Of a stretch of DNA of 64,000 bases, positions 20,376 to 26,061 are shown in pieces. Where the stretch lies: NCBI GenBank assembly GCA_965652295.1, contig CBFGTS010000011.1:64001-128000 (forward strand), written 5' to 3'. The translations under genes were made by a program, and so were the position numbers. This stretch comes from an uncultured Haloferula sp. (lineage in GTDB: Bacteria; Verrucomicrobiota; Verrucomicrobiia; Verrucomicrobiales; Akkermansiaceae). The notes beneath the pieces were generated by a model, which saw only the letters and a program-made list of their open reading frames with translations, was not told the DNA's origin and did not search any database. Each line of letters begins with the position of its first letter. Positions within the stretch are counted from its first letter, which is position 1.

Positions 20376-20573
20376 ACGGGGCGGCAGAGCGGCTTCATGA
20401 CGCCAGCGCTGGGGACCTCTGATCTGACGGCGGCTGCAATGGCGGAGATCAAGGCGATGATGAGGCTGGAAACACAGATGCCAAATCAGTGGCGATAAGT
20501 GGGAGCTTGCTCCAGCGTGCGCAATGTTTTCGATGATAGATCTTTACGGGACGGTGAAACATCAGGTTTGCTG

Positions 20574-21182
20574 ATGGCGATGTTTTCACGATTCCTCATC
20601 ACGACGGGTATGGCGGGCTTGGCGGCAGCTGGCGCGCATGCGGCGACAACGGTGTACGATTTCGACGATCTGGCACTGGCAACCCACCAGAACAGCTTCA
20701 GTGAAGGAGGGTGGACCTTCGACACGGAGACATCGGGTTCCGGCCCGGTGAATCTGGCGGTGGAATCGGGAGTGGGTCGGCTCAGTAGCGGGCCGTCCGA
20801 CAAGATGGTGACCTTCGGCTTTCCGGCAGAGGCTGGCAGTCCGATCACCATGGTGCTGATCCGCCCGACGAACGATGAGCCGTTCAAGCTGGAGTCGCTC
20901 TGGGTCGGAGATGGTTTCGGCAATGCCAATCTGCGATTCGAGGCCTATCTTAACGGCAGTGCGGTAGGCGTGGCGGCGGTGGATGTGAACATCTTCAATA
21001 CCTCCACTCAGGTGACGTTCACCGGATGGGATCAGTTGGACGAGATCCGCGTCTCGAACTCGAGCGGCTCGCCGGACCTGAATTTCGAGATCGATGATCT
21101 CGCCGTGGCTCCTGTGCCAGAGCCGGGCCTTCCTCTGCTGGTGGCTGCGGGAGCGCTCCAGGTGTTCCGTCGTCGGCGTTGA
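20574..21182 (+). CDS. PEP-CTERM sorted surface protein
   Basis: Signal peptide ending AHA; C-terminal VPEPGLPLLVAAGALQVFRRRR. Start could also be 20580. Confidence 0.85.
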   Translation: MAMFSRFLITTGMAGLAAAGAHAATTVYDFDDLALATHQNSFSEGGWTFDTETSGSGPVNLAVESGVGRLSSGPSDKMVTFGFPAEAGSPITMVLIRPTNDEPFKLESLWVGDGFGNANLRFEAYLNGSAVGVAAVDVNIFNTSTQVTFTGWDQLDEIRVSNSSGSPDLNFEIDDLAVAPVPEPGLPLLVAAGALQVFRRRR

Positions 21183-21204
21183 GGCGGCTAGGGGCCGCCC
21201 TTTT
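21183..21204 (+). terminator. Putative Rho-independent terminator
   Basis: GGCGGC/GCCGCC stem followed by CTTTT just after the stop. Confidence 0.45.
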
Positions 21205-21434
21205 GGGAACGGAAGACATCTGCGTCCTTGGTTCGGGAAGGAGGTAGTTCAGGTGCGTTGCCCCTCCCGATCTGGTGCCATCGCCTTGTCACCGGCGGTT
21301 CCGACGGCTGGCCCGGCTGCACTGCCGATCCCGGACGACGTTCTCCCGTGCGGGTTCTTCGCCTCGTTCAGCAGGGCTCGAGCGTGCCATGGCCGGGCCG
21401 CGGCGCGGCGTCCGTGTCAGTCGGGAAGCCGGTA

Positions 21435-21496
21435 GGCGGCGAGCGGGAATTCAACTTGCAGGCGTATCGCCAGTTGCATCCCACTACTTGTTCGGC
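21435..21496 (-). repeat. attC left half (truncated) of the HAD cassette
   Basis: Minus strand GCCGAAC-AAGTAGT-GGGATGCAACTGGCG...; GCCGAAC complements the cassette start GTTCGGC. No right arm or R' box found. Confidence 0.55.
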
Positions 21497-22137
21497 ACCT
21501 TGTTTAGGAGCGCGACTAAATCGCTGGGAGCCGCCGCACAAGCGTAGGCACTCGCCGCCTCCAATTCCTCCCGGGTCCCATAGCCCCACAACACTCCGAG
21601 ACCAGCCACACCATTTTGGTGCGCACCAAGCATGTCGTGCTCGCGATCTCCGATCATGACCACACGACTCGGGTCGATCTCTTCTCGCTTCAGGATGTGG
21701 GCAATCAGTAGCGTCTTATCGCTCCGCGTTCCGTCGAACTCGCTGCCATCGACCGTATGAAAATATCTCCTTAATCCAAAGTACTGTATGATCCGTTCCG
21801 CAAAGACGGTCGGCTTCGAAGTTGCTACGCTTAGCCTGTAACCGCAATTCTGTAGCTCATCCAATGTTCGCTCAATCCCGGGGTATACGTTATTCTCGAA
21901 AAGTCCCACCGAACCAAACCGCTCGCGATACCTTGCCAACGCTTCATCGGCGAGGTGTTCATACAGTGGCCCGAGAAGGGTGAGCAGACTGCTCTTGAGT
22001 GGAGGTCCGATACACCAGCGGAGGCTCTCGGCGGACGGCAGCGGCTGTCCGAGGCTGGTGAGGGCGTGCTGGATACACTTGGTGATGCCGGGGAAGGGAT
22101 CTGTGAGTGTCCCGTCGAGATCGAATAGTAGATGCAT
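21484..22137 (-). CDS. HAD-IA family hydrolase (phosphoglycolate phosphatase/nucleotidase-like), cassette 3
   Basis: LLFDLDGTLTD, VATSK, MIGDREHD, GVLWGYG. ATG lies 9 nt after the GTTCGGC box. Confidence 0.9.
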   Translation of the reverse strand: MHLLFDLDGTLTDPFPGITKCIQHALTSLGQPLPSAESLRWCIGPPLKSSLLTLLGPLYEHLADEALARYRERFGSVGLFENNVYPGIERTLDELQNCGYRLSVATSKPTVFAERIIQYFGLRRYFHTVDGSEFDGTRSDKTLLIAHILKREEIDPSRVVMIGDREHDMLGAHQNGVAGLGVLWGYGTREELEAASAYACAAAPSDLVALLNKVPNK

Positions 22138-22146
22138 GATTCTTTT

Positions 22147-22232
22147 GCCGAACGTCGAGTCCTCCGAGACTTGGCGTTGCATTTCACTTTTGAAGTGAAG
22201 CTTCTGATTTTGATTAGCGGCCATAGTTCTGA
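22147..22232 (-). repeat. Degenerate attC (right arm and R' retained)
   Basis: Minus strand ...GTCTCGGAGGACTCGAC-GTTCGGC. Possible R'' TCAGAAC only partly complements the cassette-2 start GTTCTCC, and the arms pair poorly. Confidence 0.45.
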
Positions 22233-22471
22233 ACTGCCTCAGTCATCAGCGCATCCAGAACCTTCTTGTCGGCATGTGCGATGCCAGGCAAAGCTCGTGT
22301 GCCATTCGAAATCACGAACAAATTGCCGGACGGCTGCACAGAATAATTCTGGGAAAAGTCCCAACCATCGAAAGCTTCAGATACCTGAACTGCCTTGATA
22401 AAGCTCTTGGACAGCGATCTGACTGCCGATTGCTGTTCCGCGGTGAGTCGGTTCCATGTTCCCTCGTCCAT
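22214..22471 (-). CDS. Hypothetical protein (85 aa), second ORF of cassette 2
   Basis: ATG 8 nt after the previous stop; low-GC sequence; no recognisable motif. Confidence 0.55.
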   Translation of the reverse strand: MDEGTWNRLTAEQQSAVRSLSKSFIKAVQVSEAFDGWDFSQNYSVQPSGNLFVISNGTRALPGIAHADKKVLDALMTEAVQNYGR

Positions 22472-22479
22472 AGTTCAAT

Positions 22480-22713
22480 TTATTCGTAAATCTTGGCCGC
22501 TTGTAATGCGTCAGCGAAAAGCTGCCAACTTGCAATCTCAGGATTGAGGCTTGAGCCTGTGTTCGTGTAATACCCATCGCAATCGCCGAGCCAACCGCTT
22601 AGTGATTTAAGAAACGACCCGAGACCGCAATTTTCCCACTTCGATGTGTCTTCGGTGGATAACTCCGCGATTAGAGCAATCAGCTCGTCTCGTGTGTTGA
22701 TCTGTCGCTGCAT
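22480..22713 (-). CDS. Small hypothetical protein (DUF7660-like from memory), first ORF of cassette 2
   Basis: WENCGLGSFLKSLSGWLGD...SWQLFADALQAAKIYE pattern. ATG 6 nt after the GTTCTCC box. Confidence 0.65.
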   Translation of the reverse strand: MQRQINTRDELIALIAELSTEDTSKWENCGLGSFLKSLSGWLGDCDGYYTNTGSSLNPEIASWQLFADALQAAKIYE

Positions 22714-22719
22714 TTTCTT

Positions 22720-22844
22720 GGAGAACGTCAAAGGCCTGACACCCGCTACCGGGAGGCAGGCTTCGACTCAGGTTGAGGGTTATGGCTACCATCCAGCTTC
22801 GACTCGGAGGCGGTAGCGGGTTGTCCAGCGCCGTCTTGTTCGCT
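22720..22844 (-). repeat. attC recombination site (125 bp), cassette 1
   Basis: R'' AGCGAAC (22838-22844) and R' GTTCTCC (22720-22726). Arms 22736-22751 CTGACACCCGCTACCG and 22811-22828 CGGTAGCGGGTTGTCCAG pair with two extrahelical bases. Confidence 0.85.
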
Positions 22845-23603
22845 GTTAGTTGCAGGGATGAAGCGGTCTCCATTGTAGGCATATTCTGCCCAGACATACC
22901 TCTCTCCCGGATCCATGAAATTCTCTCTTCCGGTGACTTTAACTGTATTTCCCTTCTGCGGAAGCTCATAGGTCAACCAGATTGACTTCTTTTGTGTGGG
23001 CTGGTTAAGGTGCGCCTTGTAGTGATTGCGGTAGCGGTCGAGGATGCGATCGACGGACAATTCGGGCAATATCGAGTCCGGAATCCGCATCAACGAACCT
23101 CCTTCGGCGAAAGCTCCACCACGATATTGCCAGAATTCGGGTCGATTCATGGATATCGACCAAAGGCCTAGGGGGCCATTCTCCTTGGCAACAAAGAGCC
23201 TCTGGGTGCCGGCTTGGTGGCTGACCGCGACAAGCGGGTTGTCTTCGTTCCCAAATATCCGGATTGTGACTGAAAAGGCTCCTGCGTCGCAGGAGGGTAT
23301 CGTGTATTCAGCATTTAGATATTTGTCGCTCAGGGTGGCACGATTGATAAACGTGATCCTGCGCTCGGTCTCATGTGCGATGTTCGTAAAATACCTGCCG
23401 GAAAGTAGCAGGTAATAGTCCAAGGCAACCTTGGGAGGATCAGATCGCTTGGCCAACAGCGCCTCTTCGTCATCCGTCAATGTGACAGGGAGCCACTTCC
23501 ATGAAGAGGTCTCGTGACCGGGGTTGTCGAATGTGACCTGGCGCTCTTCGGACCACGCCATGCCCTGTAGAAGTGCAATTAGGATGAATAGTGTAGTTTT
23601 CAT
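22746..23603 (-). CDS. Secreted hypothetical protein, cassette 1 (C-terminus reads through attC)
   Basis: Signal peptide MKTTLFILIALLQGMAWS. The tail SEQDGAGQPATASESKLDGSHNPQPESKPASR is encoded by the attC. Confidence 0.8.
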   Translation of the reverse strand: MKTTLFILIALLQGMAWSEERQVTFDNPGHETSSWKWLPVTLTDDEEALLAKRSDPPKVALDYYLLLSGRYFTNIAHETERRITFINRATLSDKYLNAEYTIPSCDAGAFSVTIRIFGNEDNPLVAVSHQAGTQRLFVAKENGPLGLWSISMNRPEFWQYRGGAFAEGGSLMRIPDSILPELSVDRILDRYRNHYKAHLNQPTQKKSIWLTYELPQKGNTVKVTGRENFMDPGERYVWAEYAYNGDRFIPATNSEQDGAGQPATASESKLDGSHNPQPESKPASR

Positions 23604-23609
23604 TTTTTG

Positions 23610-23631
23610 AGCGAACAGTTTTTATTAGTAG
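23610..23631 (-). other. attI-like integron recombination site
   Basis: Minus strand CTACTAATAAAAACT-GTTCGCT: an A-rich tract before GTT as in known attI cores, with no attC hairpin upstream. GTTCGCT complements R'' of attC1. Confidence 0.65.
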
Positions 23632-24166
23632 GGTCGAGGATGGTTATATCCAGCGATCCTTTTTGAGGAGGGTGGCCTGGAATCCTTGATTTTACAAGGA
23701 TTTTTGCGGTCTGGGTGCGTATATCGGCCGAGGTAGAAGTGCGTTTCGAGGGGGCGGAGGGGGGTGGCGATATGGGCGGTCTTCCACCGGTGGTGGGTCG
23801 TGGGGGGCGGAGCCGGGCAATGGCTATCGTCGCAGCGCGACCCATCTCGGGATCGAGCGTGCTGGGAGATCCTTTTGAAGCCACTATCCCTCGCCACTTT
23901 TTCCTTTTTCCTCATCACTCGCGACTTCTGCCAGGCGCTCGCCCAACCCTTTCCCGGACTTGATCGCCCTGCTCCGTTGCCTCCGTCATCTCCGTTGCTC
24001 CGTGCCGGAGAGAAAAGCCCACTCGCGCAACTCCTGGCTAATCTGGCGGAGAGCCTTTCTTTCTTCATGCGCGGATCTCACGCGGATCTTGCGGGGTGAA
24101 TCGATGGGGTGGCGCGGGTGCACTGTGGGTGGAGAAGAGGGTCGTTCGGGTTTTGGAGGAAGGTGG

Positions 24167-24322
24167 AGAGGTGGCGGGCTGCTGGGGTGCACAGGCAAGA
24201 TGCCTGTGCTCCTTTTGGGCGCGTCTCGATTTCATCATTGGCGTTCCGTGGCTCCGAGACGGAGAAGCTCCTGCCAGAGGTGGCGGGCTGCTGGGGTTGT
24301 GGGACGGGGGCGTCCCACCTCC
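24167..24322. repeat. Two 22-bp direct repeats, each followed by a GGAG-type REP-like hairpin
   Basis: AGAGGTGGCGGGCTGCTGGGGT at 24167 and 24276. Hairpins GCACAGGCA-AGA-TGCCTGTGC and GTGGGACG-GGGG-CGTCCCAC, each ending in CTCC. Confidence 0.65.
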
Positions 24323-24384
24323 TACTCTGGTGCTTTCCGGTTGCTTCACGGGAGCTCTGGGGTCATGAAGCCGTGCGCCCTACG

Positions 24385-26061
24385 ATGTCCGAAACCACCA
24401 GCTCCAAGTCCGATTTCATCCGCGATATCATCGCCGCCGACCTGGCGGGCGGGAAGCATTCGACGACGATCACCCGCTTTCCCCCGGAACCCAACGGCTA
24501 CCTGCACATCGGCCACGCGAAGGCGATCTGCCTGAATTTCGGGATCGCCCTCGAAAACGCAGGGACCGGGGCCGAGTGCCACCTGCGCTTCGACGACACG
24601 AACCCGTCCAAGGAGGAGACGGAATACGTCGAGAGCATCAAGGAGGACGTCGCCTGGCTGGGCTTCGACTGGGGCAGGCACCTTTATTTCGCGTCCGATT
24701 ACTTCGAGTATTTCCACGACTGCGCGGTGGCGCTGATCGAGAAAGGCCTCGCCTACGTGGACGAGCAGACGCCCGAGGAAATCAAGGCGGCCCGGGGAAA
24801 CCTCACCGAACCGGGGACGCCCTCGCCTTTCCGTGACCGGACGGTGGAGGAGAACCTCGACCTGTTCCGCCGGATGCGGGCGGGGGAGTTCAAGGAGGGC
24901 GAGGCGGTGCTGCGGGCGAAGATCGACATGGCGGCGCCGAACGTGGTGATGCGCGATCCGGTGATCTACCGGGTGATGCACGCCTCCCATCACAACACCG
25001 GCGATGCGTGGTGCATTTACCCGATGTATGATTTCGCGCACCCGCTGGAGGACGCCAAGGAGCACATCACGCACTCGCTGTGCACGCTGGAATTCGAGAT
25101 CCACCGGCCGTTCTACGACTGGGTGATCGAGCACTGCCCGGTGCCGGCGAAGCCCCGCCAGATCGAGTTCGCGCGGCTGAACCTGAGCTACACGATCATG
25201 AGCAAGCGCAAGCTGCTGCAGCTCGTGAAGGAAGGCCACGTCGGCGGCTGGGACGACCCGCGGATGCCCACGATCAGCGGTCTGCGCCGCCGCGGGGTGC
25301 CGCCGCAGGCGATCCGGAACTTCTGTGAACGGATCGGGATCACCAAGTTCAACGGCGTGACCGATGTCGCCCTGCTTGAGTTCGAGATCCGGGATTACCT
25401 CAACAAGGAAGCCCCGCGCCGCATGGCGGTGCTGGATCCGGTGAAGCTGGTGCTGACGAACTACGAGGAAGGTCGTAGCGAGGAGGTCGAGGTGCCCAAC
25501 AACCCGGAGAAGCCGGAGGAGGGGAGCCGGAAAGTGACGCTCACCCGCGAGCTGTGGATCGAGCGCGAGGACTTCATGGAAGAGCCGCCGAAGAAGTTCT
25601 TCCGTCTCTTTCCCGGCGGCTACGTGCGGCTGCGGGGCGGTTACATCATCCACTGCACCGGCTTGGAGAAGGATGCGTCCGGGAAGATCACGGAAATCCA
25701 CTGCGAGTTCCTGCCGGATACGATCGGCAAGGACGCGCCGGAGGGCGTGAAATGCAAGGCGGCGATCCACTGGGTTTCCGCGGAGCATGGCGTGGCGGCG
25801 GAGGTCCGTCTCTACGACCGCCTGTTCACCGTGCCGAATCCCGACGCGGCCGAGGGCGGTTTCGTTTCCGTGCTCAACGCCGACTCGCTGCAAAGCGTCC
25901 AGGCGTGGGTCGAGCCTTCGCTGGCGGATGCGGAACCGGAGCAGATCGTGCAGTTCGAGCGGATCGGCTACTTTGTCGCCGACCGCCACGACCACGTCCG
26001 CGGCTCGCGGGCGGTGTTCAATCGCACCGTCGCCTTGCGGGATTCCTGGACGAAGAAGTGA
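24385..26061 (+). CDS. glnS: Glutamine--tRNA ligase
   Basis: [47 protein letters not shown]. Confidence 0.96.

Follow-up and report, generated by a model that had tools for sequence, protein, structure and literature searches.

An attI platform without an adjoining integrase gene beside glnS in an uncultured Haloferula genome, and a case for cassette loading in trans

The integron integrase, IntI, recombines the folded bottom strand of the attC site of a circular gene cassette with a double-stranded attI site at G|TT, and in the 64,000-nucleotide stretch of uncultured Haloferula sp. DNA considered here (hereafter the window) a short array of cassettes beside the gene glnS is headed by an attI-like site that has no intI gene next to it. 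According to the available text of Cury et al. (2016, PMC4889954), 95% of attC-site clusters that have no integron-integrase (CALINs) are without an intI pseudogene, four routes to a CALIN are possible, and attI is not searchable in most integrons. Small CALINs have been explained by insertion at genomic attG sites, with attI itself stated, in the accessible part of the same account, not to insert into genomes (Loot et al., 10.1101/2022.09.11.507474). Recombination of attI with attC works in assays when IntI is supplied from a plasmid (PMC9668308, as far as its available text goes), and the consulted part of Qi et al. (2023, PMC9892861) describes one CALIN with its own attI, in the Shewanella prophage M16-3. 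In the openly available literature we came across neither a census of attI sites without integrase nor work on attI in Verrucomicrobiota, and no account of such sites in multiple copies or across a lineage. The origin and status of CALINs are an open question, which the long and alignable attI of the present lineage makes countable.

The window (G000:C11:64001-128000) belongs to the source genome G000, an assembly of 4.37 Mb in 35 contigs that is 98% complete; C-numbers denote its contigs, L-numbers individual fetched loci, and G001, G002, G003 and G014 congeners. An earlier note on this DNA had proposed a secondary platform that could capture cassettes with an integrase supplied in trans. A strain difference at the crossover (sequencing run X3, below) and the conservation of attI motifs speak indirectly for the capture in trans, whereas the platform turned out to be one of five paralogues, not a lone secondary platform served by a main integron, in an assembly with no intact intI. 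We consider the locus to be probably a dispersed solo attI platform whose cassettes were loaded in trans, and, as core conservation and the strain difference suggest, one that is likely still able to capture when IntI is present.

Solo attI sites beside glnS and across the lineage

The array, 2.1 kb long and on the minus strand, has a PEP-CTERM-like gene on one side and the divergent glnS on the other. Similarity to paralogues and congeners stops at its attI core, TACTAATAAAAACT|GTT (23614..23630, minus strand), where by integron convention the crossover lies between G 23616 and T 23615, and the first seven cassette bases are complementary to R'' of the first attC site. Upstream of it the platform (23617..23865, minus strand) is 80-88% identical to paralogues at C18, C4 and C7. 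Its proximal ~160-190 bp make up a conserved extended attI, laid out as GATATC boxes near -157, -110 and -32, a palindrome near -80, and a core with the consensus (T)AC(G/T)AATAAAnACT|GTT. The corresponding elements of the window, all on the minus strand, are a proximal GATAT(A/C) box (23643..23651, about -34 to -29), which we infer to be an accessory IntI or host-factor site, the imperfect palindrome ATCCTTG-N6-CAAGGAT (23682..23701), partly conserved across the genus, a middle GATAT box (23719..23727, about -110), and a distal box in the variant form CATATC (23768..23776, about -157). A promoter for the first gene, which has none of its own, is probably provided by the platform as well.

A hidden Markov model (HMM) built solely from the nine attI sites that adjoin intact intI in congeners recognises the window site with an expect value (E) of 6.7e-13, and the same model finds all five G000 copies of this attI at E 3e-20 to 5e-8, the next match standing at E 0.08. 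Furthermore, in G002 a distance of 260 bp separates the homologue of the platform from a divergent IntI that is intact and of full length (481 aa). Judged by this homology, the site at 23630-23614 is a real attI. The region in which intI would be expected, where the earlier note had seen ~750 bp free of a tyrosine-recombinase ORF, holds no intI remnant. The proteins of the highest-ranking TIGR02249 loci, 21 in number (20 of them long IntI, the other a shorter tyrosine recombinase), served as tblastn queries, and neither they nor an HMM built from them detected IntI similarity at 23631-24384, matches upstream of attI at E 0.13 or worse being noise. No IntI match is present on contig C11, and TIGR02249 has no match above its cut-off anywhere in G000. 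The 750 bp upstream of the attI consist of dispersed repeats, one of which (23888..23971, minus strand) lies directly upstream of the platform, where intI and its promoter, PintI, would begin; the SOS box is likewise absent at the platform. None of the three outcomes that the earlier note had set beforehand as damaging to its proposal (an attC1 without a match, an attI unlike that of relatives, an intI remnant) was encountered.

Four further copies of the platform exist in G000, at C18, C4, C7 and C14 (71-86% identity by blastn over the 200 bp upstream of cassette 1). Each of the five leads to a different first gene, similarity stopping at the crossover, and the C7 core reads CT|TT instead of CT|GT. 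Four G000 copies form one supported clade; those at C18, C4 and C14 have a common repeat-to-platform junction, and those at C18, C4 and the window have 250-490 bp of common non-intI DNA where canonical integrons carry the SOS box and the start of intI. When motif columns are defined from attI beside intI in genomes other than G000, the platform copies of the window and C4 differ at 1/33 of them compared with 31/132 spacer columns (p 0.006), and those of the window and C7 at 1/33 compared with 30/132 (p 0.006); the C4 and C7 copies had been recovered by plain blastn independently of the motif. Six solo pairs pooled give 19/198 motif against 215/792 spacer differences, a contrast that the search model partly builds in for solos outside G000.

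Four sequencing runs from four studies were mapped on the locus. One 351-nt contig, from the soil run X3, aligns to 23921-23614 (2 differences), after which come 43 letters that do not fit; all three window cassettes continue GTTC, and the X3 match ends after GTT, which would imply a different first cassette. This suggests that the X3 strain, 99% identical upstream, gained a different first cassette without a local integrase. Depth in X3 is 6-14 over the distal junction (20501-21500), the cassette for a HAD-family hydrolase and the upstream spacer, and 0-1.9 over cassettes 1 and 2, although coverage holes of this kind prove nothing; those in run X12, at a depth of ~3, were left out of account. 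Runs X6 and X7 contain cassette 1 at 99%. Two identities of 88% are additional signs of cassette traffic: in the closed genome G003, that between a solo's first cassette and a cassette of an array linked to intI, and at cassette 1 itself, that between its first 228 bp and the gene next to a solo attI of G002.

Solo attI is the commonest attI form detected in the lineage. A genus scan by sequence model, with 101 candidates scored per genome, yielded 75 matches in 22 of 35 genomes, with up to 12 per genome; 70 fetched loci and three G000 copies were examined, and after six malformed matches were dropped there remained 67 well-formed attI in 21 genomes. Among these, 43 have no IntI similarity in the 1.2-2.7 kb upstream, nine adjoin an intact divergent intI, 12 have a split, partial or contig-cut intI, and three have too little flank. 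A pattern scan of species genomes, which may overlap the genus set and for which 80 of at least 121 loci were shown, gave a comparable division: among the loci listed, 61 sites are from Verrucomicrobiota, 38 of them without intI, six with a full and six with a partial intI, and 11 too short, so that 38 of the 50 listed with enough flank or an intI match are without intI. Of the distinct named loci that carry the attI motif, 79 in all, 60 have Verrucomicrobiota titles. Roughly two thirds to three quarters of the attI detected are without intI, with the recombination motifs kept and the SOS box dropped: the box (TGTTC-N4-GAACA, which in G000 also occurs just upstream of lexA and recA) is present at 6/9 intact integrons, 5/12 decayed ones and 0/43 solos. 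At 14 of 21 solos, the first seven cassette bases are the exact complement of the first detected attC (shuffle mean 1.6, maximum 7), from which it follows that cassettes entered precisely.

Solo attI also arise repeatedly within genomes. The nearest neighbour of a platform lies in the same genome in 28/62 cases compared with 3.5 expected, and platform pairs reach 87-93% identity; intact IntI pairs within a genome are 45-73% identical (5 pairs, 3 genomes). Upstream of glnS, no attI or intI was found in any of 15 fetched congeners (33 have a glnS match), nor downstream of pyrC in any of five, and the insertion of the platform at glnS consequently looks lineage-specific.

Further attI types are missed by the attI model, for example beside the only intact intI of G014. 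This IntI (L273) belongs to another clade (~50% identity), and its attI is of another type that shares the core; nine or more GATATC-type solos occur in the same genome (L052, L074, L081-L083, L089, L100, L102, L112). Beyond assembled genomes, a scan of JGI metagenomes returned no match to the exact pattern and, with a looser pattern, one unrelated decayed integron. Phages as the main vehicle found no support, viral contigs having given two matches, one of them beside an N-terminal piece of intI. A 22.6-kb viral contig (L276) carries a three-box attI without intI or detected attC. At two unrelated loci (L016, L262), nuclease genes, which we take to be GIY-YIG-like, are inserted into decayed intI.

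Cassettes, attC sites and surrounding repeats

The array has a G+C content of 53.0% compared with 63.5% for the genome, and the low-GC island described in the earlier note is thus borne out, as are the coordinates, on the minus strand, of its core TACTAATAAAAACT|GTT and of the paired ends GTTCGCT/AGCGAAC (cassette 1) and GTTCGGC/GCCGAAC (cassette 3). Its flanks are glnS, encoding glutaminyl-tRNA synthetase (24385..26061, plus strand, divergent), and the convergent PEP-CTERM-like protein gene (20499..21182, plus strand; a weak family match, below cut-off), which lies between pyrC and the array. All features of the array named below are on the minus strand.

Cassette 1 starts with GTTCGCT (23616-23610) and carries an ORF (open reading frame; 22746..23603) for a protein of 285 aa with a hydrophobic N-terminus, which matches no Pfam or NCBIfam family and, in the Atlas, falls in unnamed clusters only, with a low recognition score. 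Its attC site, attC1 (22720..22844), is a complete 125-bp site of the long Verrucomicrobiota type, with R' GTTCTCC and an R'' AGCGAAC (22844-22838) exactly complementary to the cassette start, and is matched at E 4.6e-24 by an HMM of 40 attC sites from other genomes, G000 being left out. The length given to it earlier holds, whereas its L-side stem has three single-base bulges and not the two extrahelical bases then counted; its folding energy is weak as proof (z -1.82, with 11/200 shuffles folding equally well). The ORF extends 95 nt into attC1 (22746-22844). An attC-encoded C-terminal tail of ~30 residues (EQ.G.G.PA...ES......PQPE.E..SR) recurs in cassette 1, L068 and L107, and has no NCBIfam match; read-through into attC is full in 3 of the 37 first cassettes listed and shorter in ~11 others.

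Cassette 2 comprises two ORFs, one for a 77-aa DUF7660 protein (PF24693; 22480..22713) and one for an 85-aa protein without family match (22214..22471), with start-to-R'' complementarity of 5/7. Its attC2 (22147..22232) is scarred by what is left of an insertion sequence (IS) end, 40 bp at 22203-22164 that match the terminus of an IS-like element present at C2 and C9, which is presumably IS30-like; the sequence does not fold as an attC and is probably no longer recombinogenic. Cassette 3 starts with GTTCGGC (22153-22147) and encodes a HAD-family hydrolase of 217 aa (21484..22137), phosphoglycolate-phosphatase-like but below curated cut-offs. At the distal end of the array, attC3 retains its left half (21447..21496; E 2.8e-5 with the attC HMM), the right half being deleted, and its R'' GCCGAAC (21496-21490) is complementary to the cassette 3 start at 7/7 positions. 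By HMM the array accordingly has one complete, one half and one scarred attC.

Upstream of the platform, the window contains a degenerate copy of a repetitive extragenic palindromic (REP)-like palindrome (24225..24247, minus strand; ~45 genome copies) and a second REP-like palindromic repeat (24296..24324, minus strand; an exact pattern finds 17 copies). All five platforms have a REP-like palindrome upstream, compared with 0.7% at random, an association that is weak because the pattern was tuned to include the window copy, the copies are related to one another and coding DNA forms part of the control. G000 has 12 Y1-transposase-family matches.

Elsewhere in G000, one IS family is found at the same position inside long attC sites at C18:484, C4:296654, C9:194196, C14:58156 and C30:180, and breaks the assembly there. 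The array at G000:C4:294600 has a first cassette beginning GTTAGCC, with a complementary R'', and starts at GAACTAATACT|GTT, which is unrecognised by the attI models and is either a deleted attI or a secondary site. At G000:C4:218900-216550, a solo platform is followed by a PEP-CTERM-like gene as first cassette and then by a two-gene block, which we take to be a DUF262 plus HEPN defence pair. Lastly, an orphan SOS box at G000:C9:194580, with repeats on one side and an IS end on the other, is found upstream of a four-cassette array without intI or attI.

Competing explanations for the solo platform

Under the explanation we favour, an extended attI of ~190 bp would have lost, or never had, intI and the SOS-controlled promoter, and IntI would come from elsewhere: a chromosomal integron of the recent past, sister strains, or incoming DNA. 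Supplied in trans, the enzyme would recombine the folded attC bottom strands of circular cassettes into the solo attI. Each platform would then be an independent landing pad, on which old distal cassettes would become fixed as their attC sites decay, and platforms would spread within genomes by recombination at upstream dispersed REP-like repeats, the least certain step. The anatomy of the array says that the platform received its cassettes by integron chemistry.

A number of observations weigh against this explanation. Intact intI is missing from the assembly, which has two broken pieces only: a C-terminal two-thirds at C18, co-oriented with its platform and split by an inverted-repeat element, and a ~40-codon N-terminus with an SOS box at C14. 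The earlier note's suggestion that intI be sought elsewhere in the genome was thus answered by pieces and not by an intact gene; the two do not overlap and may be the two ends of one broken intI. Capture cannot run on the enzyme of G000 itself unless an intI is unassembled; an intact one may lie in an assembly gap, since the array with which C2 ends was assembled without its head. The evidence from X3 is one short contig, the 43 letters of which are known as a mismatch and not by sequence, and a very recent extra copy of the platform could be its source. Scanning the platform revealed no sigma-70-like promoter, and the distal array is old, its attC2 and attC3 both being dead. Moreover, routes to a clean deletion exist: the G003 intI (L097) has direct repeats on either side, C9 keeps an SOS box without intI or attI, and G001 has two 88-100% identical loci, both with intI remains, which are possibly a strain mixture.

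The two loci with intI pieces have further features. G000:C14:54960-55776 is a chimera of the upstream half of one platform type, the 40-codon intI N-terminus with SOS box and a second attI type, and the element inside the C18 fragment (G000:C18:2297-2512) is ~200 bp long with terminal inverted repeats and has 87-89% copies at C1, C6 and C9. An inverted, Treponema-type arrangement of intI as the norm, which C18 had suggested, was rejected, as intact intI is divergent in 9/9 and 6/6 attI-linked cases.

The strongest rival is that of an ordinary decayed integron at glnS, which would have gained its three cassettes in cis and then lost intI and PintI cleanly between repeats, the platform persisting by driving cassette 1, or not yet being eroded, and capturing nothing now. 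Such decay is documented in the lineage by the split or partial intI at 12/67 sites, and would be helped by direct repeats of the kind that flank the G003 intI, which match the repeat found upstream of two solos at ~90%, equally well on both sides; at C9 intI has been removed right up to the SOS box, and the near-identical G001 pair with its intI remains, and the decayed attC2 and attC3, are also as this explanation predicts. However, the fetched congeners have no intI or attI upstream of glnS (15/15) or downstream of pyrC (5/5), and three G000 copies have 250-490 bp of common non-intI DNA upstream, in the place of the canonical SOS box and intI start. Furthermore, the conserved columns take in the recombination core, beyond bases that look like a promoter, and X3 differs at the crossover though its upstream DNA is also without intI. 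On balance we regard the decayed integron as unlikely.

Solo platforms loaded in trans would still have had to spread, and here two modes compete. Copying of the platform alone, to which we give an even chance, is favoured by the common repeat-to-platform junction, the common non-intI DNA and the fact that remnants are few, clean solos far outnumbering them. The other mode, in which whole integrons disperse and then lose intI cleanly through repeats, is favoured by the G003 flanking repeats, the orphan SOS box at C9 and the G001 pair, and falls a little below that mark in our estimation.

A very unlikely third possibility is that IntI seeds platforms itself, by an aberrant excision from GWT to attC that yields a circle with attI and cassette, inserted at a new attG. 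Excision outside the insertion point has been seen experimentally (10.1101/2022.09.11.507474, in its available part), and the homology between intI-linked and solo sites ends at -155 to -190 in the 7/7 comparisons without intervening repeats, but the left junctions of the most recent pairs (92%, 87%) and of the G000 copies have no common G|WT, the copies with repeats reach to -250 to -650, and the distal attC at the window is shortened, the predicted right junction not being visible; site-specific seeding through GWT junctions is thus not supported by the comparison of left junctions. Least credible of all is that cassettes inserted at an attG (GWT consensus), giving a CALIN, or a lone attC site that has no integron-integrase (SALIN), with a chance likeness to attI: although attC x attG recombination is efficient and proposed, in the accessible text, as the source of small CALINs (10.1101/2022.09.11.507474), and the C4:294600 array starts at a site that the attI models do not recognise, an attG needs ~18 bp only and no such homology, whereas at the window the homology to attI beside intI covers ~190 bp and three spaced boxes (E 6.7e-13) and the genome has five copies, and an attG origin is refuted for this locus given that the intI-linked sites are attI.

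A broader, tentative proposal, which we hold to be rather less than evenly likely, is that of a distributed integron in Verrucomicrobiales, in which the platform would multiply independently of intI, to at most about a dozen copies per genome, and an occasional SOS-induced IntI would load many separate first-position slots. The loading IntI would not necessarily be encoded in the same genome, and many CALINs would be live landing pads, not ruins. If capture in trans is true, a cell gains several first-position slots instead of one, and the gene-capture capacity of these soil and water bacteria is underestimated by intI-dependent tools.

Comparison with known systems

Compared with a complete integron, the window array has an attI at its head, a G|TT start, an ORF and a complementary attC R'', and is without an adjoining intI and an SOS box at PintI. 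With no intI nearby it is a CALIN in that respect, and under the two-attC rule for CALINs it may be called a SALIN. As in the CALINs and SALINs described in the available text of two accounts (PMC4889954; 10.1101/2022.09.11.507474), the attC array is short and has no intI or pseudogene nearby; unlike them, it has the full attI typical of its lineage, one complete attC and a platform family of several copies, and where an attG-derived SALIN or CALIN would have a short GWT site without attI homology, the site found here is homologous to attI.

The Shewanella M16-3 CALIN, as far as the available account describes it (PMC9892861), is similar in that an attI heads an integrase-less array, and its core, CACTAATAAAATGTT, resembles that of the window. 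It is a single case, beside a complete integron and in a cryptic prophage, whereas here there are five chromosomal copies in an assembly without intact intI, and solos outnumber complete integrons lineage-wide.

The sedentary chromosomal integrons of Verrucomicrobiota, exemplified by G002 L053 with its divergent intI, SOS box and attI, share with the window the same attI boxes, core and attC types, as well as related cassettes; the window differs from L053 in being without intI, its promoter region and the TGTTC-N4-GAACA box, dispersed repeats standing in their place. Xanthomonas integrons provide a further parallel, with frequent loss of intI and CALINs described as trans-mobilisable (10.1101/2025.06.18.660453, in its available part). 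In that account, so far as its accessible text extends, an ancestral platform lies at one locus (ilvD) and no attI is reported at distant CALINs, whereas the platform positions described here are multiple and lineage-specific.

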